Origin: an uncultured Verrucomicrobiota bacterium | Lineage (GTDB): Bacteria; Verrucomicrobiota; Verrucomicrobiia; Limisphaerales; SXQI01 | Direction: 5' to 3' | DNA length: 64,000 nucleotides | Assembly: GCA_964478815.1 (NCBI GenBank) | Contig: CAYZKY010000003.1 | Coordinates: 23,442 to 87,441 of the forward strand | Shown here: positions 4,817 to 19,282 of the stretch, piece after piece | How positions within the stretch are numbered: position 1 is the first letter of the stretch | Layout of the letters: each line of letters opens with the position of its first letter | Program-made: the position numbers and the translations under genes | The notes under the pieces: generated by a model | What the model saw: only the letters and a program-made list of their open reading frames with translations | Database searches by the model: none | What the model was told of the DNA's origin: nothing

Positions 4817-5119
4817 TCAAGCCCGCTGCAAGCGGCTTTTGCCGCCTCGCGAAACCGGCCGTCCATCAGTTCTCAACCACGCCGAACGAGCGAGGTGGAC
4901 GGCCTCGGCCAGCGCGTCTTTGGAAATCCTGCCCCCACCCCAGCGCGCCAGTATCACTTCCCAGGGATGCCCTGCCTCGATCTCCTCCAACACATCCGCG
5001 ACGAATACCCGCGTGCCTTTGAACGTGACCCGGCCATGACAAATCTCCGGATCGGCAACAATGTGTCGGCAGAGTTCGATCCGAACCGGTTTTTCACCAG
5101 GTTTTGCGGCGCGCGTCAT
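4817..5119 (-). CDS. DUF433-like (antitoxin-like HTH) small protein
   Basis: 100-aa ORF. The core ADPEICHGRVTFKGTRVFVADVLEEIEAGHPWEVILARW fits the DUF433 pattern as I remember it (dP-x3-G-x-P/V-x-x-GTR-x-V followed by a helical tail). No PIN or DUF5615-type partner ORF is adjacent. Confidence 0.65.
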   Translation of the reverse strand: MTRAAKPGEKPVRIELCRHIVADPEICHGRVTFKGTRVFVADVLEEIEAGHPWEVILARWGGGRISKDALAEAVHLARSAWLRTDGRPVSRGGKSRLQRA

Positions 5120-5193: not shown

Positions 5194-8100
5194 TCATGGC
5201 ACTGGCGGAGGTTCCTTCGCGGCGTCGCGCACGCTGCGGGCGAGTTCGATGGCTTGGTCCAAGGACGGTGCCGTAAGAGCTGGCGGAATTGCCCCTTTTG
5301 TTATTTCCAGGACATTCGAATTGGTGACACGAAAGACCGGTATCCGACTCCTCCGATAATCATCAAGTAGCTTCCAAGGAGTACCGCCGAACATGACTGC
5401 GTCTATCCCGGAGGGCAATGCCGTGTGAACCAACACGATCGTAGGCCGAAAATAGCTTTGCATATCATACACGAGTCGGTCGATGGTTCCTGTATCTCCC
5501 GCGATGGGACAAATCGCGTGTTTGGCGCTGGGCTGCCAGCCAAAAAAATCTCCGCCATGCGGGGCTAAAAACAATACCTGCTCTCCCTCCCGTTTCTGCC
5601 GTGGCCGAAGTTTTCCTCCCACGCCCAGAAAAGCGTAGATAGCCGACTTCAACTCCTGCGCCTCCGTGTCGGCCAGCCGCCACAGCTCATCGAGCGTCAG
5701 ATCGTCCAGGAACGCCACGGGAGCCGGGCCCATCAACGCCAGACGGAAGTCATCCAGCTTCGGCTCGAATACGGATTGGTAACCGAATGACGTGCCCTTG
5801 AAGGCCTCGGTCCAGCGTAGGTACGCCTCCGTCGTGTAAATCGATCTTCCTCCGAAAGCGTGCTTCCAGAGTAGGTCGCCGCCCCGCTCGATCACCTCGG
5901 CGAGTGGTTTAAGCCACTTGGGCAGATCCTCCAGTGCGACACGTAGCGCCGGTTCGAAAATCTGTCGTGTCTCCGCCGAAAGTTCCTTCCACAGTTCATC
6001 GACAACTTTCTCGAGGAACTTGTCGCCCGTCTCGAGAGAGAGCTTACCGAGGGAGAGAATTCGAGAAACCGCCGCCAGACCCGCCCCCATGCCCCGGCCC
6101 GGCGAACCATAAAGCTGGTGGCGGGAAATCCCAATGGCCAGCAGCAGAGCGCGCCGCAAGGGCTGCCCCCGCCGCCGCAACATGCTTTCGTAAAAGAGCA
6201 CCGTCGCGATTTCGTCCTTCAACTGATCCCGCCGCGCCCCTGGCGCTGCCACGCGCCCGATGGCTGGAATCACGCTCGACCACGGCGGCGAAAGATCGAG
6301 AATCCGGTACCGCTCCGCCAGCGTGCCGGGGTCGATGTCCGACCCGAACCCTTCCAGCTCGGCGCAAACTTCCTCGATCCAATTCGCGGCGCGCTTTGCG
6401 TCCTGAAAACGAGCCTCCTCATCCGGCCCTTGCGCCGCCACCGGCGCGCTCGCAGGCAGCGTGGGAGGGGTGCTCGGCGAGACAGCACTTCCAAGTGTTC
6501 TCGGCTCCGGCACAGGCGCAATGTTGGCAAAATGTTCGAACAATGGCTTCTCTTCGCCCAAGCCCAGACCGGCTTTCACCTGCGGGATCTTCAGAGTCAG
6601 GACAGACAACGGAGCATCCGGCACCAGAATTCCGATTGCCGGAGGGACCGCCGCTTCACCGGCGTCCATGGGAACCGATATCCCCGGTTCCGTCGCGGCT
6701 GGTGGCGCTGGTTCCGGTGGCACCGGCACGCGATCGCCGAAAGGATCAACTTCCCACCGCCATTTTTTATGAGGCTCGCCTGCCGAAATGAGGTACGGCT
6801 CCAATATGTCGAGATTGAAGTCTTCCACCTGAGCCCGCGGGAAGCTCAGAATAAAGGCGTTGGGATTATTCAGTATTTTAATTAGATCGCCCAAAGCGTT
6901 CTCGAGTAGGTTCCAACTCGGGCCGGAGATCAATTTGCCAATGATTTTTTCTCGCCGCTTATCGGTTCTATCCACTCCTTCCCCCGAATCCAGCCGTCCC
7001 TCCAAGTGTAGCTGAAGGGCATTCCGGCTGATGTCGAGTTGCTCGCTGGCTTCGTTCCAGCGTCGCGCCGGGTAGTACAAAGTATCTAGGAGGAATCGGC
7101 CGAATTGGGGGTCTTGTCGCAACCGCTCGCGCAGCTCGCTCTTCTTCAACACTTCCTCCACGGCGAATTGCATGAAGGCTCGCCGTTGAAACCCGCGTAG
7201 GTTTCGAATCTCGCCTGGCTCCAGGACGCATTGCCCATCGCCGTTAGTGAAAGCGAGGAATCGACGGCGCAGTGCAATCGGGCTGCTGTACGCCCCTTGC
7301 AGCAGCACCGTGCAGAGAAAGTCGTAGTCGCGATCCTCGATTGTCCGCACTATTTCAGACGGAGTGGTTGGCTCGGGCACTGGCGTAGCAGGAAGCTCAG
7401 CGCCAGCCGCCTTTTCTATCTGGAGAATCCGCTGGACGTGCGCCCGCAGTTGACCTGGAAGGTAATGGATGAAAAGTCGGTCACTGAAAAACGTGAAGTC
7501 TCTGCTGTACTGCCCGTGGCGCCCTTGCGCGGTAATCGTCTCGAAATACGCCCGGTCGCACAAAAAGCAGAAGAATGCCCGCTCCGTCACGAAGTGCTTC
7601 AGATGCGCGATGAGCACTTCCATTTCTTTTTCGAGCTTGTCCACCTTGTCCAGCTCATCGATCACAAAGATCGGCGCCAGCCCCGCTTGCACCATCCGCT
7701 CCACCAGCACCGGCAACATCCGATCCAGCGACTCGACCGAGGTATCCCATGTGAACACCCGATTGCTATCCCGCGTCGTCTTGCGCGTATTCTTGCTGGT
7801 TATGCTCAAGGTCAACGCCGTCCCCAACGCCGTCCCCAGCCCCAACAGGGCGGCCACCAACGGATCCTTCCCCTGCACCAGCGCGCCCATTCCCAGCAAT
7901 CCGCCCGCCAGCACGGTCAACAACGGGTTGAGCAGATCCTTGATTACCGGCCGCAGGCCAAAGTCCGAGACTTGTTCGAGCACCGAATTTCGCGTTTGCG
8001 TGTCGACGCCCGTCAGCTTCCCCGCCACCAATTGGAACGCCTCGATCGCGCTGGCCATCGCCACCAGCTCCCGCGTGCCCTGGCCCTTCGGCAACTTTTT

Positions 8101-8781
8101 GGTCCATTCGCCGCGCCCGGCCCTCAGCACCCCCGAATCGAGCGCTCCCACCAGCCGCCAATGGTTGCGCAGCGTCGCCAGCTCCGGCGCATGATCGAGC
8201 TCCTGCTCCAGGTGCGCCGCCAGCTCCAGCCAATCCTCCTTGCGGTTTCCGTCCGCCGGAGCCTGCGCTTCCACATGCCGCCGAAACTGCCGCCCCATCT
8301 CATCCATCAGCGCCCGGTGCAAACTCTTGGCCAGCACCTTCAGCACCGCCGCGACCGGGCTATTTTTCGCTTCCACCGATTTTCCGTCAGACCCCGCCTG
8401 ATCTGCCCCGTCCCCGTCCGTTGGCGTTTCGCTTGTTGTCTCCCCTTTGGCCGCCGCCGCTTGCCGACGCTCGTCCGTCTCCACCGCGTTAAAAAGATCA
8501 GGCCCATGCAGCGGAATGAACATTGGCCACAGCTTCCACTTCTCACCCGAAGTCGCCTCCATCGCCCGCCGCTGGCTCTCATGCACCGCCCAGCGCACCA
8601 TCGTGGTCTTGCCCGATCCGCGATGCCCCGCGATCAGGAACGATCGCCCGTTGGTCTCCTTGTTGGCGTACCGCTCGATCTCCCGCAGCAACGTTTCGTA
8701 GGCGTCGGACTTCGCCAGTGTCGGCTGCTGTTTCCAGCTCGCTTCGCTCAGCGGCTCCGGCGTCTCCTTTAGCGAAATCAT
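5194..8781 (-). CDS. 1195-aa P-loop NTPase with a hydrophobic two-helix hairpin inserted inside the NTPase domain (KAP-like topology) and a long uncharacterised C-terminal region
   Basis: Walker A is GHRGSGKTT (aa 52-60, nt 8602-8628). An acidic/Gly low-complexity stretch covers aa ~100-140. Two hydrophobic helices, LLNPLLTVLAGGLLGMGALV and LVAALLGLGTALGTALTLSI (aa ~283-327, nt 7801-7935), are separated by QGKDP. Walker B is IFVIDELDKV (aa 371-380, nt ~7642-7671). A sensor-1-like strand AFFCFLCD follows. The start overlaps the upstream gene stop (ATGA at 8778-8781). Confidence 0.85.
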   Translation of the reverse strand: MISLKETPEPLSEASWKQQPTLAKSDAYETLLREIERYANKETNGRSFLIAGHRGSGKTTMVRWAVHESQRRAMEATSGEKWKLWPMFIPLHGPDLFNAVETDERRQAAAAKGETTSETPTDGDGADQAGSDGKSVEAKNSPVAAVLKVLAKSLHRALMDEMGRQFRRHVEAQAPADGNRKEDWLELAAHLEQELDHAPELATLRNHWRLVGALDSGVLRAGRGEWTKKLPKGQGTRELVAMASAIEAFQLVAGKLTGVDTQTRNSVLEQVSDFGLRPVIKDLLNPLLTVLAGGLLGMGALVQGKDPLVAALLGLGTALGTALTLSITSKNTRKTTRDSNRVFTWDTSVESLDRMLPVLVERMVQAGLAPIFVIDELDKVDKLEKEMEVLIAHLKHFVTERAFFCFLCDRAYFETITAQGRHGQYSRDFTFFSDRLFIHYLPGQLRAHVQRILQIEKAAGAELPATPVPEPTTPSEIVRTIEDRDYDFLCTVLLQGAYSSPIALRRRFLAFTNGDGQCVLEPGEIRNLRGFQRRAFMQFAVEEVLKKSELRERLRQDPQFGRFLLDTLYYPARRWNEASEQLDISRNALQLHLEGRLDSGEGVDRTDKRREKIIGKLISGPSWNLLENALGDLIKILNNPNAFILSFPRAQVEDFNLDILEPYLISAGEPHKKWRWEVDPFGDRVPVPPEPAPPAATEPGISVPMDAGEAAVPPAIGILVPDAPLSVLTLKIPQVKAGLGLGEEKPLFEHFANIAPVPEPRTLGSAVSPSTPPTLPASAPVAAQGPDEEARFQDAKRAANWIEEVCAELEGFGSDIDPGTLAERYRILDLSPPWSSVIPAIGRVAAPGARRDQLKDEIATVLFYESMLRRRGQPLRRALLLAIGISRHQLYGSPGRGMGAGLAAVSRILSLGKLSLETGDKFLEKVVDELWKELSAETRQIFEPALRVALEDLPKWLKPLAEVIERGGDLLWKHAFGGRSIYTTEAYLRWTEAFKGTSFGYQSVFEPKLDDFRLALMGPAPVAFLDDLTLDELWRLADTEAQELKSAIYAFLGVGGKLRPRQKREGEQVLFLAPHGGDFFGWQPSAKHAICPIAGDTGTIDRLVYDMQSYFRPTIVLVHTALPSGIDAVMFGGTPWKLLDDYRRSRIPVFRVTNSNVLEITKGAIPPALTAPSLDQAIELARSVRDAAKEPPPVP

Positions 8782-9299
8782 TTGGTCCCCTGCGGCTCTT
8801 CCTTCGCTTTCGGCGGCACGTTCGAAACCACGGTCGCCGGCTTCGCTGGTTTCTCCGCTGCGTTGCCTTCATTCAAGAATGCCGCGCCCAGCGTGCCGAG
8901 CTGCGACACCGCCGCCAGCAAGATGACGCCCAGCAAAACCATGGCCACGAGGAGCACCATCGAGCGCGAGATCGACCACCCGCTCACCCCGCCACCCAAG
9001 CCGCCCCAATGCACCTCGAACTGCGGCGCTCCTTCCGTCCGCACCGCCTCCTCCAGCTTCGTCCCCAGTTTGCGTCCCAGCGAGACCACGGCCATTAACG
9101 CGGCCACCACGCCCGCGATTCCCAGCACCCCCACCGCCCCCTTCAGCCACGATAGCTCCCCTTGCCACACCGCCCCGACGATCATGGCGATCCCCAGCAA
9201 AACGGTCACCAGCAGCAACGTCCCCAACACCTCCGTCACCTCGCCCTTCGACGCCGGCGGCCCGCTCGAACCCGGTTCTTCAGATGCATTCATGGTCAA
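8778..9299 (-). CDS. Small integral membrane protein (about 3 TM helices), function unknown
   Basis: 173-aa ORF with three hydrophobic segments (LGTLLLVTVLLGIAMIVGAV, VLGIAGVVAALMAVVSL, MVLLVAMVLLGVILLAAV) and a Lys/Pro-rich C-terminal tail. It is translationally coupled to the downstream NTPase by a 4-nt overlap. Confidence 0.7.
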   Translation of the reverse strand: MTMNASEEPGSSGPPASKGEVTEVLGTLLLVTVLLGIAMIVGAVWQGELSWLKGAVGVLGIAGVVAALMAVVSLGRKLGTKLEEAVRTEGAPQFEVHWGGLGGGVSGWSISRSMVLLVAMVLLGVILLAAVSQLGTLGAAFLNEGNAAEKPAKPATVVSNVPPKAKEEPQGTK

Positions 9300-9403
9300 C
9301 CTCCCGAACCTCCAACTCTTGCGGGCAGCCTATCCCCCGCCCCATTTGCCGCACAAGCCAAACCACCAGCGCCCTTGAGCCACGGACGCACCGTTGAGCC
9401 CAA

Positions 9404-10897
9404 TCAAGAGAGCAGAATCTTGACGGCTCTGAGGAAGGACGGGACGGCGGTCACGAGGAATCCGAGGCCGTTCAGGGCGAGGCCGACGACGGCGGCGCGC
9501 CAGCCGCGACCGGCGAGGTGGAAGCCGAACGCGTCCTGCAGAGCAAGAGCACCGCAGATCAAGCCGATGAACCAAATGATGCCCGCGAAGGGCAGCGGGC
9601 TAAAGGCGAACCACGCGAGCCAGCCGGCGACCCCGCACCCGATGCTGAGCCACGCCGAATAGTTTTCCCGGGCCGGGAATCCGGCAAAGCCCCGCGGTTT
9701 CGGGCGGGTGCGCCCGGTGGAGGAGGGCATCCGCTGCAACGGGACAGGCGGCGCGGGGAGATTCGGCCGCGTATTGGGTGGGAGTGGGATGGGCCTCGCC
9801 TGGCCGCTGGTGCGTGGCGGAGCCACGGCCGGACCGATATGCGTTCCGGCGGTGACCGACGAGGCGGAGGGAAACGGATCGCGACCGCCGAGGAGCTTGG
9901 TGCGCCGACACCAGGGGCATTCGGTCAGGTGGCCGCTGTAGATGTGCTGGTCGTTCGCCCAACAACTGACGAGCGCTGTCTCGGCTTCCTCGAGTCCCCA
10001 TTGCCAGGCGGAGGTGTCGGGCCGGGCCGACGGGTGGGAATGCCCGTCTTGAAAGCATCGGACGAATAGATGTTGCAACGCCGGATAGAGCATTTCGAGC
10101 GGAGGCGCGGTCGGTTTGGCGGTGTAGGGGACGCCGGCTCCGGCGGCGTAGGGAAAGTGGCCGGCGGCGATCCGGGCTTCCAGCGGCGGGGATTCGCCGT
10201 GACCGGTGAAGTTGCCGGAGAAAGGATGGGTGCCTTCCATGAGCAACTGGAAGAGCAAGGTGCTGAGGCCGAACAGATCGTGCTGCACATTGCGGTCGAA
10301 CTGGCCGAAGGTCTTGCCTTGCAGCTCGGGCGGCGTGAAGTCGGGCTTGCCGACGCGACATCGGTAGACCCGGCCCTTCTCAGCATCCCAGACCTGGAAC
10401 GAATCCGTATCGACGACCGTGACGAGCGCGGTTTCCGCGACGAGAATATTCGACTCATTCAGATCGCCGACCACATAGCCGCGCTCGTGCAAGGCGCGGA
10501 GCGCGATGACCAGATTCCGGGCGGTGCGGTGAAGATAGAAATGATTGAAGAGCGGACAGGTCTGGCGGCGCGTCTTGGGATTGAAAAAGTCGATGATCGG
10601 GCGCATGCCGCCGACGAAGGGCATGAGGAATCCGACGACCGTCCCGCGGGCGTCGGCCACGGTTTCGGATGGCCAGGCGATCGAGGTGTGGTGCTGGGCG
10701 GCGGTGGGATCGAGGGGCGGGTTGCGCACCATAGCCTCCACTTTGGCGGCGCGCTCGGGGGTGGGCTTGTGCCAGACCTTGGCGACTAGGGTGGGATCGG
10801 TGGGCACCCGATAGACCAGCGCCTCGCCCCCCTTGCCGAGAAGGGCGGAGTTATCCAGCGTCAGAATCTCGCCGGTGACTGTGCGTCGCACACGCAT
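9404..10897 (-). CDS. Atypical Ser/Thr protein kinase with a C-terminal multi-TM anchor
   Basis: 497-aa ORF with a Gly loop GKGGEALVY, VAKVW lysine, catalytic loop GDLNESNILV (in place of HRDLKPxN), VDTDSF (DFG equivalent) and FTPPE (APE equivalent). A CPWC motif and a Pro-rich linker follow. The last ~110 aa carry 3-4 hydrophobic helices (WLSIGCGVAGWLAWFAF, FAGIIWFIGLICGALAL, AAVVGLALNGLGFLVTAV). Confidence 0.85.
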   Translation of the reverse strand: MRVRRTVTGEILTLDNSALLGKGGEALVYRVPTDPTLVAKVWHKPTPERAAKVEAMVRNPPLDPTAAQHHTSIAWPSETVADARGTVVGFLMPFVGGMRPIIDFFNPKTRRQTCPLFNHFYLHRTARNLVIALRALHERGYVVGDLNESNILVAETALVTVVDTDSFQVWDAEKGRVYRCRVGKPDFTPPELQGKTFGQFDRNVQHDLFGLSTLLFQLLMEGTHPFSGNFTGHGESPPLEARIAAGHFPYAAGAGVPYTAKPTAPPLEMLYPALQHLFVRCFQDGHSHPSARPDTSAWQWGLEEAETALVSCWANDQHIYSGHLTECPWCRRTKLLGGRDPFPSASSVTAGTHIGPAVAPPRTSGQARPIPLPPNTRPNLPAPPVPLQRMPSSTGRTRPKPRGFAGFPARENYSAWLSIGCGVAGWLAWFAFSPLPFAGIIWFIGLICGALALQDAFGFHLAGRGWRAAVVGLALNGLGFLVTAVPSFLRAVKILLS

Positions 10898-10905
10898 GGG
10901 CGGGG

Positions 10906-11655
10906 TCAGGGTTTCGCGAGGGTGGCGAGCAGGAGGGTGAGGTCGTCATCCGCGCGCTGGGCGATGCGTGGGGAGGTCAGAAACTTCTCGAACTGGTGGC
11001 GGCGCTCGTCGTCGTTCGGTTCACCCGCCACGAAATGGAAGAGGGGGTCGAAGAATCGCTCGTGGGGCGTGGCCTCGGGCATTTTGAGCGCCAACATCTG
11101 AAGGCCATCGGTAAACATGGCCGCTCGTGAGATGGGACCGGAGACGCTGGCGAATTGCGCGTGATCGAGCGCGCTCTCAATGGTGAGAAACAGCGTCTCG
11201 TTCAGGTACTCGGCAGCCGGAGGCCGGGTCAGCGAACGAAGCCCATTCGACCCGGAGACGAGGGCGGCTCCATCGCCGATCTGGAGGGCAGCCGCATGAT
11301 CCGGGGTGGCGGCAAGGAGCATGAGCGTGCAGGCCAGATCCCGGAGCTCGCACTTCGAACGGATCGATTCGGCGGCAAGCGCATCGCGCGCTTGCTGGAA
11401 CGCGCTTCGCAGGAGGCTTTCCAGGCGGCTCGGCGCAAGCGACCCGGCGGCGGCGGCTTCGAGGTGCTTCAAGCCGGTTCGCACCGCCAAGCCCGCGCCG
11501 ACTTCGGCGAGGCGGGCCGAACCCGCGCCATCCGCCACCGCGGCCAGCAGCATCGGCCCGTTCGCAGAACTCCAGGCCAGCGCGTCCTGGCAAGGGAGAT
11601 TGGCGCGGGCGTGACTGACGCCCTGGACGGAAACGCCGGTGACACGCCAGTTCAT
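10906..11655 (-). CDS. PP2C-type (PPM, PP2C_2-like) Ser/Thr phosphatase
   Basis: 249-aa ORF with GVSVQGVSHARANLPCQDA, AVADGAGSA, IGDGA and FTDGL motifs, typical of the bacterial PP2C_2 family. It ends 8 nt before the kinase start. Confidence 0.85.
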   Translation of the reverse strand: MNWRVTGVSVQGVSHARANLPCQDALAWSSANGPMLLAAVADGAGSARLAEVGAGLAVRTGLKHLEAAAAGSLAPSRLESLLRSAFQQARDALAAESIRSKCELRDLACTLMLLAATPDHAAALQIGDGAALVSGSNGLRSLTRPPAAEYLNETLFLTIESALDHAQFASVSGPISRAAMFTDGLQMLALKMPEATPHERFFDPLFHFVAGEPNDDERRHQFEKFLTSPRIAQRADDDLTLLLATLAKP

Positions 11656-11747
11656 ACGATCTTCGCGGTTCGGCGCGCCTGGACGCAGGCCATTTCGGTG
11701 ATCGGTTGGTCGATAAAGGACAGCATGGCGCGGAGCGGATTACCGCA

Positions 11748-11871: not shown

Positions 11872-14800
11872 TCAGGGCCGGACATTCAAGCGCAGGAAGA
11901 GAGCCGGCTGGCCGGGAATGCGGATGCCCCACGTCTCGCGCGAACGGCTCGAATCGATCGGTTCGCTGCGGAGGAATCCCGCCGGGAACCAAGTGGAGAG
12001 GTCCATGGAGGCTTCGCAGGTCAGTGGCGCATCGTCGGCCAGGACGTTCCGGGGGAACGACAAGGTCAGCGTTCCATCCAGAAGCACACTTGCTTCAACG
12101 GCTCCGAGCCCAGCCGCGGGGTCCGTATCGCTGGTGCCCAACGCGTACTCGACGATGGCGGGGAAACCATCGGCGTCGCGATCTTCGGCTGGGTCTCCGG
12201 CAAAATGGGTGCTATCGGGCGCACCCGGGGCTCCGCCGGAGATGCCGCTGGCCCGCCAGGCCAAAGGGTTTTCCTGACCCAATTCGGGCCGAGCGAAGAC
12301 GAGCGTTTGATTGGTGGACGCCAACGGCCAGGAGCCGCCGAAGCTGTAGGCGAAAGATGCGATCAGATTCGTGCCGGCCATCCACGTCAATTGCTCGCCC
12401 GTGCGCGATAGCGCGCCCGCGTAAACGCCCGCGACCGGCACCTCGAGTCCGTAGCGCCGTTGGAAGCGGAAGAGATCTTCGACCAGCACCAGGCGTTCGC
12501 CGGGAGCCACCAGCGTGTCGCGCCGCTCCGGGAACGCAAACCGGATTCCTTCCGTGAAACGAACGCCGCGCAAGTTCAGGGCGCGCGGGGACCGATTCGC
12601 GATTTCGACGAACTCGCCTCCGCCGCGCTCCAGGTCGTAATTCAATTCCGAGATGACCAGCTCGCCCGGAGCGATCGCTTCGGAGCCCACCTGGAAGAAG
12701 GCTTCGTTCAGAGCCGACCACTCGTTGCCGTCCTTCGTCCGGGCCTTGACGATGGTGTTCCGCGCCAGAGGCGGCGGCGCATTCGAGGTTTGCGGAGCGT
12801 TGGAGCGAAACACCTGCAAATCCAGATCGAAGCTGGTATCCGAGCTGGTCGCGCCGGCTTGATGCAGTTCCACGGCGACGACATTTCGTCCCGCCACGAG
12901 GAGCGAAGCAGGGATGGTGAACGCACTGAAACCCTGACCATCATCGGAGATCGATTCGGCCAATGTCGATCCGGTGACCACGCCCGCAGGCAGCGCGGAC
13001 CGAACAGCTTCCCGGCCATTGATGTAGACAATCGCGCCATCGTCGCGCTTCAAGCGAAGCTCGACCGACGCAATGTTCTGGAGATTCGCCAGATCGAATC
13101 GATGCCGGTAATAGGACGAAATCCACTTCGCATTGGCGTCTGGCCCAAATGGAATGACCGTTGCCTCGTCCCCTTCCCCATAACCAAACTGAGCCGCGCC
13201 TTCGCGCCAGGCTGCATCGTTGAAATCGGGGTGCTTCCAATTGGAGGCGGTCCACCCGGCGGCCCCATTCACGACAGCGCTGCTGCCCAGCCCGGCGGCA
13301 TCCGTAAACCACCGCCAGCGGGCGCCGGCGGGAATAATCGTCTCGCCCGCCTGGCCGGAGGAGATGACCGCGGCGCGCGGCGAGGCGGCGCCACCGGGCA
13401 ATCGCGGATCGCTCCCATCCAATGTGTAATAAAGAGAGCCGCGGCGGGGCGGCGTGAAGACGATCTGGAAGCCTTCCTCCACCACGCCGCCCTGGCGGTT
13501 CAGAACCGGACGATCCAACGCGGGGTAAAAGCCCGCCGAACGGTAATCGGCGAGCACCTGCGTGGTGCGGCCCGGCAGCCAGGAGTTGAGCGCGTTGTCG
13601 CGGCGGCTGGCCCATTCCGCCGGCGTCAGATAATTCCAGCGGGCGGACTCGGCCAGGAAGGCCCGCTGGATTTGATCGGTGCGGGCCCGAAGCCGGGCGA
13701 TATTCCGGCTGGAAGTGAGCGCGCCATCCCCGACCAGCGCCCGGCCGATCCGGTCGGCCAGCAGCACGCGATAGTCCGGATGTCCCTCTCGAAAGAGCAT
13801 GGAAAAGATGCTGCCGGGACCATCGCCGCCGGACCGGCCGGGCGCGCCGCGCCCCGTGCGATTGCCGGCGGCACAATAGTACGGCCCGCAGAACCAGCCG
13901 TCCGCATCGTTGAGATAGAACTTGAAGCCGCTGCCTGGAACGTTCGGGCCGACGCAGCGGTACTCGTCCTCCGCGCCGCCGAACATCCACATGAGCATGA
14001 AGTCGACATACTGCGGCACATCGAGCAGGTCCTTGACCTTGGCGTAGTTGCCGCGATCCCGCTTGATCTGCGCCCACACGCTTCCATCTCCATCGTAAGC
14101 CGTCCCGGGCTCGGCCCAGCCGCCGACGTTCCAATTGCCGTTAATCGATTCGTAGTCGTCCTTCGAGCCACCGAGATAACTCTCGTGCATGGCGGCGCCC
14201 CAGCGTTCCCGCAGATGATAAAGGCCCCAGTACGTGCCGTTGAGATACATGTGCACGAAACGTCCGTGAGGATTGAGCTGGCCCATCTCGAGCATCGTGT
14301 CGTCCACGAAGATGTTCGAGAGATAAAACCCGCGCATTTCCATGTCGTGCGAGCCCGAGCGCAATTCGAGCTGGTCGAATTCCTGCGCCGGCGCGAGGTC
14401 TTGGGGATAATCGTCGAAGAGGGGCCAGCGCAGTTTCTCGGCCCCATGTTCCGCGCGAAAGTAGAGCCGGAAATTCTTCTTCGCGAAGTCCGTGAATGCG
14501 CCGCCGAAATTGCGCACGCCGCAGTCCTCCTGCGTATTGGCCGTGCCATCCGTACGCAGCCACTCGAACGAGGCTTTGGCCTCGCTCGTGCCGGTCACCC
14601 CCGTAGTGGTAACGATCGAAACGGTTGGAACATCCAGCAACCCGGAGCGAACCTGCGGCCCGTAGGTGGCGTGGCGCGTCACGGTCGTTCGCATGACGGA
14701 AGAGGCGATGACATTACTCAGGAACAGGTAAGTGTGCGTATCGACATCGGTCGGTGCCCAATCCGCCTTGAACGCTGCAGCCCGCAGCACAGTGGTATTC

Positions 14801-16185
14801 GTGATGGCGATCGGCCCAGTGTACAGAAGGCCGGTTGTGGCGGTAGGCCGGGTGCGATTGGTGGTGTACCGGATCACCGCGTCTGCCGTCTCGGTGGTGA
14901 TAGTCACATGGAAGTTCGTGTCATAAAAACCCCGGTCGTGGCTGAACTTGGTATCGGCCACCACTCCCGGAAAGACCGGCCCGTTGGTCGCGCCCGGCGT
15001 CGGCGGACGCAAAAAGCCAAGCGTGCCGCCGCTGCCCAAACCGTAACCGATGTTCTTCGGGAGTTTCGGAAAGATCGGCGTTTCCGGATAATCCGCCGGG
15101 AACTGCTGGACGACCTTCGCGCCATCGGTGAGGGCCAGATATTCGCCATCGAGATCGAGGCGGAAATTGGTGTGCCATTCCGTGTCCCGGCGATCCTTGC
15201 CCGAGGCGAAGACGATGAGGAACCCATGCGCCGCCAGCCGCCGCTGGGGAAACGGCCACAGGGCCGGACGGCGCGGATCGTCGGTGAGCGCGAACCCTTC
15301 GAGCTGAATCGCGAATGGATTCGGATTGCGGATCTCGATCCAGTCCGGGGTGTCGCCATCGGCGTCCTTGAGGCCGCCCTGGTTGTCGGCGATGAATTCG
15401 TTGATCTCGGGAGGCAGCGCCGTCGCGTTGACCGAGACCTGCGCAAACGCAGACGCGCTGGCTCCCCCGTTCGAGGCGGTCAGGGTGTAGGTGGTGGAGC
15501 GATCCGGACGGACTTCGATCTGCCCCTGCGTGGCCTCCACCGCTCCGGGGAAAGGCGAAATGGTCGCCGAAGTCGCCCCCAGAATCTCCCAGCGCAACAC
15601 GCTCGGTTCCCCGGCGACGATCGCGTCCGGCTCGGCCTGGAACACGCGAATCTGGGGCGGCGGGATGCCATAGGCCTCCAGCTCCGCGATCTGCGGATTG
15701 TAGGCCGCGTCGCTTAAGTTAACGATTCGAATGAATCGCCCGGCGAAGGAACCGGCTGGATCGGCATTGCCCCGCACGATATCGACGCCCGAGACTCCCG
15801 AGTGGCTCCCATCCGTGCGCACCGCGGCCCGCCAGTTCCGCGCGCCGGACTCGCCTCCGGCATCGGCGTACAGTTCGACCGCGAAGTTGCTCAAACGCTC
15901 CGGGCAGCAGCCATCGGCGCGATTTCGCAAAACGATGCGATCCAATTCGTAGGTGCTCCCGAGATCGACCTCGAAGTAGTAACCCAGCGTGTCCGACCCG
16001 GCGAGCGGGTGCGAGAAGGTCGAAGGATCGCCATCCGTCACCCCTTCCGGCTGCAAACCATTCCAGGTCGCCCCCGAAACTTCGACCGGCGCGTTGAGCG
16101 CCAGATTGCCCTGCGCTTCCGCACGCCACCCAGCCGCCACCCAGGCGATAAGCGCCACCATTCCCAAAATCGATCGTTTCATCAT
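11872..16185 (-). CDS. Large secreted protein with an F5/8 type C (discoidin)-like domain, lamin-tail domains and a CotH kinase-like domain
   Basis: Signal peptide MMKRSILGMVALIAWVAAGWRAEAQG. I placed the start at the first ATG, with GGAGAG upstream; the track uses a GTG at 16194. A discoidin-like N-terminus is present (GVTDGDPSTFSHP...YFEVDLGSTYELDRIVLRNR). LTD motifs are INEFIADNQGG...DWIEIRNPN and VISELNYD...EFVEIANRS. The CotH-like core reads FRLYFRAEHG...ELRSGSHD...MYLNGTYWGLYHLRERW. Confidence 0.85.
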   Translation of the reverse strand: MMKRSILGMVALIAWVAAGWRAEAQGNLALNAPVEVSGATWNGLQPEGVTDGDPSTFSHPLAGSDTLGYYFEVDLGSTYELDRIVLRNRADGCCPERLSNFAVELYADAGGESGARNWRAAVRTDGSHSGVSGVDIVRGNADPAGSFAGRFIRIVNLSDAAYNPQIAELEAYGIPPPQIRVFQAEPDAIVAGEPSVLRWEILGATSATISPFPGAVEATQGQIEVRPDRSTTYTLTASNGGASASAFAQVSVNATALPPEINEFIADNQGGLKDADGDTPDWIEIRNPNPFAIQLEGFALTDDPRRPALWPFPQRRLAAHGFLIVFASGKDRRDTEWHTNFRLDLDGEYLALTDGAKVVQQFPADYPETPIFPKLPKNIGYGLGSGGTLGFLRPPTPGATNGPVFPGVVADTKFSHDRGFYDTNFHVTITTETADAVIRYTTNRTRPTATTGLLYTGPIAITNTTVLRAAAFKADWAPTDVDTHTYLFLSNVIASSVMRTTVTRHATYGPQVRSGLLDVPTVSIVTTTGVTGTSEAKASFEWLRTDGTANTQEDCGVRNFGGAFTDFAKKNFRLYFRAEHGAEKLRWPLFDDYPQDLAPAQEFDQLELRSGSHDMEMRGFYLSNIFVDDTMLEMGQLNPHGRFVHMYLNGTYWGLYHLRERWGAAMHESYLGGSKDDYESINGNWNVGGWAEPGTAYDGDGSVWAQIKRDRGNYAKVKDLLDVPQYVDFMLMWMFGGAEDEYRCVGPNVPGSGFKFYLNDADGWFCGPYYCAAGNRTGRGAPGRSGGDGPGSIFSMLFREGHPDYRVLLADRIGRALVGDGALTSSRNIARLRARTDQIQRAFLAESARWNYLTPAEWASRRDNALNSWLPGRTTQVLADYRSAGFYPALDRPVLNRQGGVVEEGFQIVFTPPRRGSLYYTLDGSDPRLPGGAASPRAAVISSGQAGETIIPAGARWRWFTDAAGLGSSAVVNGAAGWTASNWKHPDFNDAAWREGAAQFGYGEGDEATVIPFGPDANAKWISSYYRHRFDLANLQNIASVELRLKRDDGAIVYINGREAVRSALPAGVVTGSTLAESISDDGQGFSAFTIPASLLVAGRNVVAVELHQAGATSSDTSFDLDLQVFRSNAPQTSNAPPPLARNTIVKARTKDGNEWSALNEAFFQVGSEAIAPGELVISELNYDLERGGGEFVEIANRSPRALNLRGVRFTEGIRFAFPERRDTLVAPGERLVLVEDLFRFQRRYGLEVPVAGVYAGALSRTGEQLTWMAGTNLIASFAYSFGGSWPLASTNQTLVFARPELGQENPLAWRASGISGGAPGAPDSTHFAGDPAEDRDADGFPAIVEYALGTSDTDPAAGLGAVEASVLLDGTLTLSFPRNVLADDAPLTCEASMDLSTWFPAGFLRSEPIDSSRSRETWGIRIPGQPALFLRLNVRP

Positions 16186-16288
16186 GTCGCACACTCTCCG
16201 GCCGAACCCGGATGCTAATCCAAAAACACAGCAGGTTCCGCACCCGCCTGACTATTGCCCAAAACGCCGCTTCTTGTAAGGTATCGGC

Positions 16289-16689: not shown

Positions 16690-18042
16690 ATGCCAGTCCT
16701 TCCCGCCTCTCATCGTGTCCCGCGGTTCCTGAACCTTCTCCGCCTCGCGGCTTTGGCGGCGTGGTTGCTCGGGGCGACTTCCTTCCCGGCCGCCGAAGTG
16801 CGCCGAGACCAGACCGTGCGCGCGATCGAGCAGGTCATGCCCAGCGTGGTGAACATCAGTTCGAAAACGGTCGTGCGCCGGCAAGGTTACTTTTTCGATT
16901 GGTGGCGGGAGAATTGGTCACCGTTTTACCAGGCCCTGCCCCCGCAGTACAGCGCCGGATCGGGCGTGATCATTGATGAAGAAGGCTACGTGCTCACCAA
17001 TGTCCACGTCGTCGAAGGCGCGGACGAAATCGTCGTGACCCTGGCGGACAAACGCACCTTCCCGGCGGACCTGGTCATCGGCACGCGCAAGAGCGACGTG
17101 GCCCTGCTGAAGTTGCGAGCCCAGCCGGGCGAACGATTCGTGCCGATCCGGTTCGCCGGCGATGATGACCTCCTGCTGGGCGAGACCGTCTTGGCGCTCG
17201 GGAATCCGTTCGGCCTGGGCGGTTCGGTCAGCAAGGGGATTCTAAGTTCGAAGACCAGGCGTTCGAGCCCGAACGACGCCACCTTGGACATTGAGGATTG
17301 GATCCAGACCGATGCGGCTATCAATCCCGGCAACAGCGGCGGCCCGCTGGTGAATCTGGAAGGCGAGTTGATCGGGCTCAACGTGGCGATGTTCAAGGAT
17401 GGCCAGGGGATCGGCTTTGCCATCCCGGTCAAACGGCTCTCGGAATCGCTGGGGGAGATCTTCACGCCGGAAACGCTCAAGTCGCTCTGGTTCGGCGCGC
17501 AATTCAAGTCCGGCACGAACGGAATCAGCGTGCTGACGGTCGAACCGGACAGCCCGGCGGATAAGGGAGACCTGCGTAAAGGCGATCTGATCCTGCGCCT
17601 GAACAAAGAGGTCCCGAAAAGTGCCTTTGCCCTGCTCCGGGAAATCCTCGCCCACAGCGATGACGACCTGGTCTTCGGCATCCGGCGCGGCCGGGAAAAC
17701 CGCTCGGCGTCGGTTCGCCTGGTGCCCGAAGAGTCCTTCTTCAATGCGGACCTGATCGAACGAAAGATCGGCGCAACGGTGCAGCCGGTCGCGCCCCGGG
17801 CGGCCGCGTCTCTCGGGCTGAGGGGCGGGCTGGTCGTGACCGGGATCGTGCGGGACAGCCCGGCCGACCACGCCGGCTTTCAGCAAGGGTTGATCATGGA
17901 AGGGTTCGACAATCAGGCGGTCAACACCGTCGCCGGAGCCGCCCGGCTCCTTCACCGCAAACGGCGGGGCGAAACCGTCCGCATCTCCCTGATCGTGCCC
18001 AACCCGGCCCGCCGCACCGCCGTCGAACTGACGGTGCAGTAG
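16690..18042 (+). CDS. HtrA/DegP-family periplasmic serine protease with PDZ domain(s)
   Basis: 450-aa ORF. The trypsin-like triad context is TNVHVVEGAD, DVALLKL and GNSGGPLVNLEGELIGLN. The C-terminal part is PDZ-like (GISVLTVEPDSPADKGDLRKGDLIL and GLVVTGIVRDSPADHAGF). Confidence 0.9.
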   Translation: MPVLPASHRVPRFLNLLRLAALAAWLLGATSFPAAEVRRDQTVRAIEQVMPSVVNISSKTVVRRQGYFFDWWRENWSPFYQALPPQYSAGSGVIIDEEGYVLTNVHVVEGADEIVVTLADKRTFPADLVIGTRKSDVALLKLRAQPGERFVPIRFAGDDDLLLGETVLALGNPFGLGGSVSKGILSSKTRRSSPNDATLDIEDWIQTDAAINPGNSGGPLVNLEGELIGLNVAMFKDGQGIGFAIPVKRLSESLGEIFTPETLKSLWFGAQFKSGTNGISVLTVEPDSPADKGDLRKGDLILRLNKEVPKSAFALLREILAHSDDDLVFGIRRGRENRSASVRLVPEESFFNADLIERKIGATVQPVAPRAAASLGLRGGLVVTGIVRDSPADHAGFQQGLIMEGFDNQAVNTVAGAARLLHRKRRGETVRISLIVPNPARRTAVELTVQ

Positions 18043-18089: not shown

Positions 18090-19121
18090 CTAACGCTTCC
18101 ACCAGCGCCCCGAGCGCACGGCCGGTTCGGCCGTTTGCTGGCTCCGCAATTGGCTGACCAGCAACTGGCTGCGCGCGGCCTCCAGCGCCATGATGATTTC
18201 GTCGTAGCTCTGGAAGCGCTCCGCCGGATTTTTCGCCATCGCGCGCGTCAGGACGTCGCTCGTCGGCTGCGAAATCTCGGGCACCACTTCGTTCGGCGAA
18301 GTCAGCGGCGTATGGATGTGAGCCGAGACGACGGCCTCCACCGTGGGCGCTTCGAACGGCACATGGCCGGTGATCGCGTGATACAACGTGCCGGCCAGGC
18401 TGTACATATCGGAAAGAAAGTCCTCCCGTTCGCGTTTGATCTTTTCCGGCGCGATGTAATAGGGCGTGCCCCAGACGGTCGTATCGTCGTCGTTGCTCCC
18501 CTCGGCTTTGCGCGCCAGTCCGAAGTCGATCAGCTTGGGCTCGTTTTCGTCGTTATACAGGATGTTCCCCGGCTTGATGTCGCGATGCAGTAAATTCTTC
18601 TTCAGCGCCGAATTGAGCGCGGCCGCCACCTTCACCCCGGCATCGAGCACATCCAGTTCCGGAACGCGCTGCTCCCGCTCGATCCGGCTGTCCAGGCTGC
18701 CGGCATCGGCCAGCTCCATCACGAGGTAGAGCTGCCCCTCGAACTCGTCGAAGGTATAGATATGGATGATGTTCGAGTGGTTCAGCGCGGCGGCGGCGCG
18801 GGCTTCGCGGTAGAAACTCTCAAGCGCCTGCTTGTCGTCGGCCAGCTCGCGTTTCATCAACTTCACGGCCACCTCGCGCTCGAGATTCACATCGAACGAG
18901 CGGTAGACCGTGCCCATGCCGCCCGAGGCGATCTTGGCCCGCAGTTCGAACTGCCGCAACTGCATCGGCATCATCAGCTTGAAGCCGCATTTGCCGCACG
19001 GCGTGGACTCCAGCGGCGCGAGATCGCCCGGAATGAAAATCCGCGCTCCGCATCCCCGGCAGGTCACCATGCGCAGGGGCTTTCGAGTATCGACATTGGC
19101 CGACATTGGCGCCGCCATCAT
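18090..19121 (-). CDS. Hanks-type Ser/Thr protein kinase with an N-terminal zinc-ribbon
   Basis: CRGCG...CGKCG zinc ribbon, then GGMGTVY, AVKLM, HRDIKPGNIL, DFGLA and GTPYYIAPE. The track ORF extends to 19220. I prefer the ATG at 19121 (MMAAPMSANV) because GAGG lies about 6 nt upstream. The start remains uncertain. Confidence 0.85.
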   Translation of the reverse strand: MMAAPMSANVDTRKPLRMVTCRGCGARIFIPGDLAPLESTPCGKCGFKLMMPMQLRQFELRAKIASGGMGTVYRSFDVNLEREVAVKLMKRELADDKQALESFYREARAAAALNHSNIIHIYTFDEFEGQLYLVMELADAGSLDSRIEREQRVPELDVLDAGVKVAAALNSALKKNLLHRDIKPGNILYNDENEPKLIDFGLARKAEGSNDDDTTVWGTPYYIAPEKIKREREDFLSDMYSLAGTLYHAITGHVPFEAPTVEAVVSAHIHTPLTSPNEVVPEISQPTSDVLTRAMAKNPAERFQSYDEIIMALEAARSQLLVSQLRSQQTAEPAVRSGRWWKR

Positions 19122-19282
19122 AACACCTCGCCTCGTTCGGACAAGCACGGCCCCGTTTCGGCGCGCGAATCTGTCGCGGTTTCGATCAACATCGATCCCA
19201 TCACGCTTGTTTTGCCGCATAACTCGTGCCGAACGCCCGATGCTTGCGCCGGTTTTATTTCCATGCTTGCCTTGCCGCGCCG

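Follow-up and report, generated by a model that had tools for sequence, protein, structure and literature searches.

Two self-contained two-gene cassettes, a PphC/YegI-type phosphatase-kinase pair and a giant membrane ATPase with a small glycine-loop partner, probably lie side by side in an uncultured Verrucomicrobiota bacterium

A 64,000-nucleotide (nt) stretch of DNA from an uncultured Verrucomicrobiota bacterium (assembly GCA_964478815.1, contig CAYZKY010000003.1; the whole stretch is hereafter called the window) carries a block of four minus-strand genes at 5194–11655, which encode a PP2C phosphatase, a membrane kinase, a small membrane protein and a giant P-loop nucleoside triphosphatase (NTPase). 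The initial annotation had read these genes as one candidate phospho-regulated, membrane-associated conflict or signalling system. Our analysis favours instead, with a probability of roughly 85 %, two self-contained cassettes of two genes each that adjoin one another only in this lineage. Cassette A, the phosphatase and kinase, is, judged by sequence, the known PphC/YegI-type pair without its usual vWA (YegL-type) member, while cassette B, the small protein and the NTPase, looks like a widespread, patchy and previously undescribed two-gene module.

The four open reading frames (ORFs) were confirmed at 10906–11655, 9404–10897, 8778–9299 and 5194–8781, co-directional and with the operon-like spacing ascribed to them, namely 8 nt between the PP2C gene (249 amino acids, aa) and the kinase gene (497 aa), 104 nt between the kinase gene and the small ORF (173 aa from a TTG) and a 4-nt overlap between the small ORF and the NTPase gene (1195 aa). 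The small ORF exists as described, but its start most likely lies at ATG 9293, which is the NCBI call and is preceded by the Shine-Dalgarno sequence GGGAGG 6 nt upstream; the product would then have 171 aa and the gap to the kinase gene becomes 110 nt. Three of the four products had been taken for membrane-embedded proteins, and hydropathy supports membrane segments in three of them. The principal features of the block are as follows.

10906..11655, minus strand: PphC-like PP2C_2 Ser/Thr phosphatase, 249 aa (Pfam PP2C_2, E 5.6e-46)
9404..10897, minus strand: YegI-like membrane Ser/Thr kinase, 497 aa (YegI homology)
9294..9403, minus strand: junction between the cassettes, 110 nt, a spacer just past the end of homology to the related locus L173 (kinase stop)
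8778..9293, minus strand: small membrane protein, 171 aa, with three predicted transmembrane (TM) helices and a low-complexity Lys/Pro/Ala tail
5194..8781, minus strand: AAA+-like P-loop ATPase (the NTPase), 1195 aa, whose start overlaps the stop of the small gene by 4 nt (ATGA)

The cassettes are regarded as unlinked because they do not co-occur elsewhere and because close relatives of the kinase are found without the NTPase. No kinase or PP2C homologue was present within the 10-kb flanks of 87 NTPase loci (0/87). From the other side, 83 related kinase loci were examined, the denominators being the loci testable for each question, and the NTPase was downstream of the kinase in none of the 52 that could be tested (0/52). 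Elsewhere, then, NTPase homologues show no synteny with genes for a kinase or PP2C, and the four-gene system proposed at the outset did not hold up. A metagenome scan with a 3-sequence alignment of close relatives gave no match, and for this reason a second metagenome scan was run from the kinase side.

The borders of the cassettes can be deciphered from individual loci. In L173 the kinase and the PP2C protein are 92 % and 88 % identical in amino acids to those of the window, and the DNA is 87.9 % identical over 2253 nt (blastn), which cover window positions 11656–9407 only; these limits coincide exactly with the start of the PP2C gene and the stop of the kinase gene. Both flanks of L173 are unrelated to the window and no NTPase module stands at the junction; downstream of its kinase lie a HigB-toxin/HTH-antitoxin pair (8102–8817) and then a convergent GHMP kinase gene. 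The locus L088 (kinase 80 % identical) is arranged as vWA, a 1518-aa surface protein, PP2C and kinase, followed by the same convergent GHMP kinase gene as in L173, with nothing inserted after the kinase. The junction after the kinase appears to accept varied cargo. In L005, which comes from the same sample as L088 and lies on another contig, the NTPase is 73 % identical to that of the window and the match to the window is limited to the small gene and the NTPase. It had also been suggested that the small protein and the NTPase take the place of the missing vWA protein; this is contradicted by two loci, L090 and L173, in which PP2C-kinase pairs occur without a vWA gene and without any NTPase.

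Direct protein comparison of cassette A was made with E. coli K-12 yegL-pphC-yegJ-yegI. The PP2C protein of the window is 37 % identical to E. coli PphC over its full length (E 3e-49) and the kinase is 36 % identical to YegI over 331 aa (BLASTP, E 4e-57), which bears out the E. coli type given to both in the initial annotation; in the sister locus L089 the pair is preceded by a vWA protein with 53 % identity to YegL. The kinase is composed of a kinase domain (aa 1 to ~335), a Pro-rich linker and C-terminal hydrophobic segments (aa ~416–496, window 9410–9652), with hydropathy segments at aa 435–453 and 468–496 forming a predicted C-terminal membrane anchor. Its match to Pfam Pkinase is weak (E 5.5e-7, under the gathering score). 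The kinase Lys singled out earlier, K40 (VAKVW), is present and, together with D145 (GDLNESN) and D163 (VDTDSF), is invariant in 25 family members; the three align with VAKIY, GDVNQNS and IDSDSF of YegI, whose catalytic residues are Lys-39, Asp-141 and Asp-159 (10.1101/819920).

With the E. coli YegL-PphC(YegK)-YegI triad, cassette A shares the PP2C-then-kinase order, the tight spacing, a kinase with predicted C-terminal membrane segments and the conserved Lys/Asp/Asp set. It differs in that the vWA gene is absent from the window, whereas sister loci do have a YegL-type vWA gene, and in that its kinase has 497 aa against 648 aa in YegI, similarity to which stops at about residue 331. The JGI name of the kinase family is 'DNA-binding helix-hairpin-helix protein with protein kinase domain'; the window kinase has no helix-hairpin-helix (HhH) Pfam match and ends after its TM segments, unlike YegI with its C-terminal HhH region. 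As first noted, there is no vWA partner: when two vWA proteins of the YegL type were used as tblastn queries, no homologue was found anywhere in the 64-kb window, and no vWA gene is hidden upstream of the 1440-aa ORF next to the PP2C gene, in the manner of L088, the ORFs there being without a VWA domain.

In E. coli, yegL-pphC-yegI is one operon and YegI is an autophosphorylating inner-membrane kinase that is dephosphorylated by PphC (10.1101/303594, 10.1101/819920); the physiological role of the YegI system there is unknown (PMC13232886). Homology to the E. coli proteins suggests that in cassette A a membrane-anchored Ser/Thr kinase of the Hanks type autophosphorylates and is reset by the PP2C_2 phosphatase. 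The kinase family is very large (at least 1607 matches) and its C-terminal modules vary (TM, TPR, WD40). PP2C is found directly upstream of the kinase in 57 of 74 testable kinase loci and the vWA-PP2C-kinase triad is complete in 40 of 65, while an independent blastp clustering of the flanks recovered PP2C in 64/83 and vWA in 50/83. In E. coli K-12 (L171, 2147674–2149026) yegL-pphC-yegI is flanked by yegD, which encodes an Hsp70-family ATPase; a recurrent downstream ATPase, Hsp70/YegD-like or other, was not found among the 83 YegI-like kinase loci.

Cassette B, by comparison, is conserved as a pair of its own. A homologous small gene, Pfam-less, lies immediately upstream of the NTPase gene in all seven loci first examined. 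The genome collection was scanned for further loci with a 56-sequence NTPase alignment, a single-protein query being too specific and giving no match, and the 79 NTPase loci from one-genome-per-species contigs were considered. A motif-bearing small ORF was detected by pattern immediately upstream in 48 of these 79, and most of the others carry variants of the motif that are visible by eye, e.g. GGLGGSGGGW and WGGLGHGVGGW. The small proteins upstream of the NTPases are mutually homologous, and their shared, invariant WGG(L/F)GG..GGW..S motif leads into a TM helix.

The small-protein and NTPase cassette is spread over at least 8 phyla, its hosts comprising Acidobacteriota, Gemmatimonadota, Alpha-, Beta- and Gammaproteobacteria, Verrucomicrobiota, Planctomycetota, Bacteroidota and Myxococcota, with Paraburkholderia, Caballeronia, Methylobacterium, Bradyrhizobium, Novosphingobium, Leptothrix and Roseateles among the cultivable ones. 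The best genome match to the window NTPase is in an Acidobacteriota metagenome-assembled genome (MAG) (39 %), the homologue in a Verrucomicrobiota MAG being just 30 % identical. One monoderm-labelled MAG contig with the module (L040, CAYZKM010000386.1, labelled uncultured Bifidobacterium sp.; 31 % identity) is probably a binning contaminant, other named hosts being nearly all diderm; the only other monoderm-labelled NTPase matches are two very weak ones in Actinomycetes.

A recurrent third partner of the module was not found, the best candidate family being present in 8 of 84 loci, counting either side and strand. The 118 nearest neighbours of the NTPase module are housekeeping by Pfam (e.g. 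tRNA synthetases, FBPase/GlpX, release factor, transglycosylase) and no PADLOC family matched more than one of them. Integrases or mobile elements adjoining the NTPase were not noticed in the contexts inspected individually. With no recurring third family and with housekeeping neighbours, cassette B is therefore self-contained and located outside defence islands, where the initial annotation had thought to look for it.

The NTPase itself was characterised from its sequence family and from an AlphaFold (AF2) model with a mean predicted local distance difference test (pLDDT) score of 78.5 and a core above 90. The landmarks of the protein are listed below.

8602..8628, minus strand: Walker A, G52-H-R-G-S-G-K58-T-T60, with G52, R54, G55, G57, K58 and T60 invariant in 56 sequences
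7813..7941, minus strand: hydrophobic helical hairpin, aa 281–323, Ala/Leu/Gly-rich, with helices 281–302 and 307–323 in the model
7645..7671, minus strand: Walker B, I371-F-V-I-D375-E376-L-D378-K379, with the catalytic Glu; strand 368–375 in the model
6427..6684, minus strand: Pro-rich, low-confidence linker, aa ~700–785, pLDDT below 50, the part of the gene with the lowest GC content at third codon positions (GC3)
5194..6426, minus strand: C-terminal helical and small alpha/beta domain, aa ~786–1195, pLDDT 70–94, conserved in the family

In the model, strand 46–52 leads into Walker A and is followed by strand 85–92 (beta2). Between beta2 and Walker B lies an insert of ~260 residues, which holds a helical bundle (93–253) and the two hydrophobic helices, and past Walker B come strands 403–408 and 434–438 and then a helical lid to about residue 650; the strand order and the helical lid fit an AAA+ ATPase. 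In Walker B, F372, E376, L377, D378 and K379 are invariant in the 56 sequences and D375 is nearly so. Because Walker A, including the K58 named earlier, Walker B and the catalytic Glu are preserved throughout this set, the NTPase would be expected to be an active ATPase. Both hairpin helices are hydrophobic in every one of the 56 members (median Kyte-Doolittle (KD) KD17 values 1.91 and 1.63), and charged residues make up 2.4 %.

Homologues of the NTPase number at least 317, mostly of 1100–1250 aa and nearly all labelled 'hypothetical'. A profile search of 1.84 billion representatives returned 809 clusters (50 % identity) at E<=1e-30 and 1201 at E<=1e-10, and the family matches run end to end, C-terminus included. 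In several lineages the NTPase has just ~660–730 aa (P0007, P0034, P0053, P0085), and in 6 loci a separate same-strand ORF of ~460 aa follows the short NTPase (e.g. L012, 3862–5256), which suggests that the gene has been divided in two, one part for an N-terminal ATPase and the other for a C-terminal protein. One member of the family, P0051 (1549 aa), has WD40/beta-propeller repeats in the C-terminal part. Such an arrangement is typical of STAND-like sensors.

The small protein is defined by a loop between its second and third TM helices.

8967..9008, minus strand: signature glycine loop, W96-G-G-L-G-G-G-V-S-G-W106-S-I-S109, between TM2 and TM3, a predicted beta-hairpin turn

W96, G97, G98, L99, G100, G101, G105, W106 and S109 are invariant in 18 small-protein sequences. 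The AF2 model (pLDDT 77.5) has helices at 16–43, 49–87 and 110–141, and strands 92–94 and 106–108 flank the glycine loop just before the last helix. The conserved part is limited to a TM helix, ~25 residues, HWGGLGGGxGGWxxS and a further TM helix, the N-terminal helices and the low-complexity tail being variable across the family. The small protein has no match in Pfam, NCBIfam or PADLOC, and Foldseek with its model gave no match at E<=0.001, the best being a meaningless one to MscL at E 2.8. A profile search with the small protein gave just 18 matches, a count that is hardly informative on family size, as the word index is a limitation for short proteins of divergent sequence. In the literature, nothing relevant came up on either the glycine motif or a two-gene system with a membrane AAA_16 protein.

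Housekeeping membership of the NTPase had been named as an outcome that would speak against the first interpretation; profile searches place the NTPase in no known family, with no match to any Pfam family at threshold or to any NCBIfam, PADLOC or PDB family. Pfam gives weak matches to the Walker A region alone, AAA_16 being the best (E ~1e-6 to 3e-6; 28.2–29.8 bits against a cut-off of 32.6, residues 29–153), with nSTAND_NTPase5 at E 0.007, and the C-terminal domain has no Pfam match even at E<=10. The family profile against PDB sequences yielded P-loop-level matches alone (ORC4 at E 0.013, 'archaeal ATPase'). Foldseek with the NTPase model gave no match at E<=0.001 in the PDB, where the best had E 0.039, or in BFVD. 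The weak structural neighbours are all AAA+-type (p97/Cdc48, NSF, FtsH, Yta7, ORC, RFC, RdrA).

Similarity of the NTPase to KAP proteins had been proposed, and it can be divided into two parts. The hairpin inside the P-loop domain is real, and with the KAP family (Kidins220/ARMS, PifA; PF07693) the NTPase shares the character of a large multi-domain membrane-associated P-loop NTPase with helices interrupting or flanking the NTPase domain. Membership of that family was rejected: PF07693 scored 12.0 bits against a gathering score of 20 (E 0.13), over residues 43–72 (the Walker A loop) only, with PifA as positive control reaching E 3.2e-43, and hhalign of the NTPase family profile against F-plasmid PifA gave 19 columns at a probability of 3.8 %. 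As these tests failed, the likeness to KAP and YobI/Tmn is one of architecture and not of family membership.

Tmn (YobI family) is an anti-phage membrane P-loop NTPase that acts as a decamer, exports Mg2+, causes plasmolysis and has two helices inside its P-loop domain (PMC13001434). Two hydrophobic helices inside the P-loop NTPase domain, intact Walker A and B motifs and a long, mostly helical C-terminal region are common to Tmn and the window NTPase. The window NTPase, on the other hand, matches no PADLOC model, that of Tmn included, bar one marginal RtcR/PspF-type (AAA/HTH regulator) match, and has no significant Foldseek match in a PDB copy in which the presence of the Tmn structure is unconfirmed. 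Its family is also without a defence-island context. Tmn is a single gene, whereas members of the window NTPase family nearly always come with a gene for the small glycine-loop protein, and this coupled second gene argues against identity with the stand-alone Tmn. In relation to AAA+/STAND-like proteins (ORC/Cdc6, 'archaeal ATPase' PF01637, RdrA), the best neighbours are AAA_16, ATPase_2, ORC-CDC6-like, ORC4, RdrA, RFC and p97; all are weak, every match falls under the curated threshold or significance, and in none of those families is there a small membrane partner of its own or an insert of ~260 residues separating beta2 from Walker B. With PADLOC-DB v2.0.0 the kinase gave weak generic kinase-domain matches alone and the PP2C and small proteins none, in agreement with the earlier statement that a named defence or signalling system of this composition is not known. 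NCBIfam likewise yielded nothing specific for the four proteins.

That all four genes nevertheless form one phospho-regulated membrane system, with the NTPase and its small partner standing in for the vWA protein under the control of kinase and PP2C, is judged highly improbable. Several observations would suit such a system, and the first and last of them also weigh against the two-cassette reading. All four genes point the same way, the successive gaps being 8 nt, 110 nt and -4 nt, and neither a terminator nor a sigma-70 promoter match was found in the gap at 9294–9403, so that read-through co-transcription and an opportunistic functional link in the lineage of the window are conceivable. The vWA gene is absent, and kinase, PP2C and vWA sets do adjoin other NTPase-centred systems, such as those of GAP1-N2 GTPases in actinobacteria (PMC7159879). 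A 36 % NTPase homologue, P0003, has upstream of its 196-aa small gene a 510-aa gene cut by the contig end, whose size would fit a YegI-like kinase; this gene is known by length alone (JGI 3300047160, 8346-nt contig). Against these stand the lack of co-occurrence in either direction, the pairs of L173 and L088 without the NTPase, the vWA-less pairs of L090 and L173, and the break of DNA homology exactly at the cassette borders, for which reason the juxtaposition of two cassettes is preferred.

For cassette B taken by itself, the following mechanism may be envisaged. Its hairpin would hold the ATPase at the inner membrane, on the cytoplasmic side and in complex with the small protein, the two proteins being translationally coupled and made in a fixed ratio by way of the ATGA overlap. 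ATP binding and hydrolysis, probably in an oligomer like those of other AAA+/STAND-type proteins, would switch or remodel the membrane partner, and the conserved C-terminal domain could serve as an input or regulatory module. As a tentative idea, the output could be a change in membrane permeability or ion flux when the cell meets stress or invasion, following a logic like that of Tmn and PifA. Similarly speculative is the broader proposition that the small protein and ATPase are an undescribed two-component membrane machine, a third independent P-loop ATPase lineage with membrane helices in the catalytic domain beside KAP and YobI/Tmn, which gates or remodels an oligomer of the small protein and so alters permeability under stress or infection. 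Weighing against the mechanism envisaged, it is drawn by analogy, with no structural or sequence relative of known function found, and the hairpin is only moderately hydrophobic (KD about 1.3–2.2) with pLDDT 53–67, so that membrane insertion is a prediction.

Two other accounts of cassette B were considered. It may act against phages or by abortive infection, in the manner of PifA (KAP) or Tmn (YobI), in which case C-terminal sensing of an invader would lead to membrane leakage or ion export through the small protein. This would agree with the position of the hairpin, which YobI/Tmn and KAP proteins likewise have inside the P-loop domain (PMC13001434), the patchy spread (about 800–1200 clusters at 50 % identity among the 1.84 billion representatives), the discrete cassette with other flanks in its 73 % relative, a mobility like that of a cassette, the better genome match in Acidobacteriota than in Verrucomicrobiota, the slightly low GC3 of the NTPase gene and the WD40 fusion in one member. 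We nonetheless consider it rather doubtful, given that neither protein has a PADLOC model, bar the marginal AAA/HTH regulator match, that the neighbours are housekeeping and free of noticed integrases or mobile elements, and that the whole length is conserved, C-terminus included, unlike fast-evolving sensors. Slightly less doubtful, and still only a possibility, is an accessory envelope or membrane-homeostasis machine of diderms without a conflict role, in which the AAA+ protein would extract, insert or remodel a component together with its small partner. Named hosts almost all in diderm phyla, chromosomal housekeeping neighbourhoods, a translationally coupled pair of the kind typical of stoichiometric complexes, and weak AAA+-type structural neighbours that include the unfoldase/segregase kind (p97/Cdc48, NSF, FtsH, Yta7) are consistent with it; the family is, however, not a core one but rare and patchily distributed, no envelope pathway is conserved in its neighbourhood, and it has no significant similarity to known envelope ATPases.

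The composition of the block had been taken to indicate a foreign or mosaic origin. The line at 6841–6900 with 38 % GC was confirmed and belongs to the lowest 0.3 % of lines, but the neighbouring genes do not have the 65–80 % GC first quoted; those scored have 57–67 % overall, and 62–67 % without acpP. The NTPase gene has a GC of 0.605 and a GC3 of 0.71, against a GC3 of 0.77–0.85 in its neighbours, and the anomaly is real, yet mild. The dip does not extend beyond the poorly conserved linker and the C-terminal half and is concentrated in the linker (GC3 0.605 over aa 600–800), and the case for a foreign origin from AT-rich patches is accordingly weak. The block had also been placed directly upstream of the fabG-acpP-fabF cluster, but a further ORF intervenes and separates the two.

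4817-5119, minus strand: orphan DUF433 ORF, 100 aa (Pfam E 1e-10), between the NTPase gene and fabG

DUF433 proteins usually have a PIN-like partner. The ORF in the window is followed only by a 39-aa ORF.

On the other side, directly upstream of the PP2C gene, a 1440-aa multidomain protein (11872–16194, minus strand) with F5/8 type C, CHB_HEX_C/Fn3_assoc, CotH kinase-like and Lamin-tail domains is probably secreted or surface-located. Large surface proteins recur beside the kinase module, that of L088, between vWA and PP2C, being a different giant protein of the Cadherin/He_PIG kind. A few kilobases upstream of the block lie an HtrA-like Trypsin_2+PDZ protease (16690–18042, plus strand) and a second, canonical Hanks-type Ser/Thr kinase (18090–19220, minus strand; Pkinase E 3.8e-49). 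Rfam has no family at gathering score across window 1–64000.

Overall, the four genes do not make up a real, conserved phospho-regulated unit, and effort is not warranted on them as such. For cassette A, the YegI/PphC/YegL triad outside E. coli is now quantified, at ~60 % of related loci and with varying kinase C-termini, and this census may aid discovery of the still unknown function of the triad. Cassette B is the part worth following, being sharply bounded, represented by ~800–1200 clusters in at least 8 phyla and without a Pfam, NCBIfam or PADLOC entry, a solved relative or any literature trace found. Membrane-embedded P-loop ATPases are just becoming understood, as with the Mg2+ export and plasmolysis of Tmn, and an independent family of such ATPases, tied to an obligatory small partner that bears an invariant glycine loop, would be testable in cultivable hosts.

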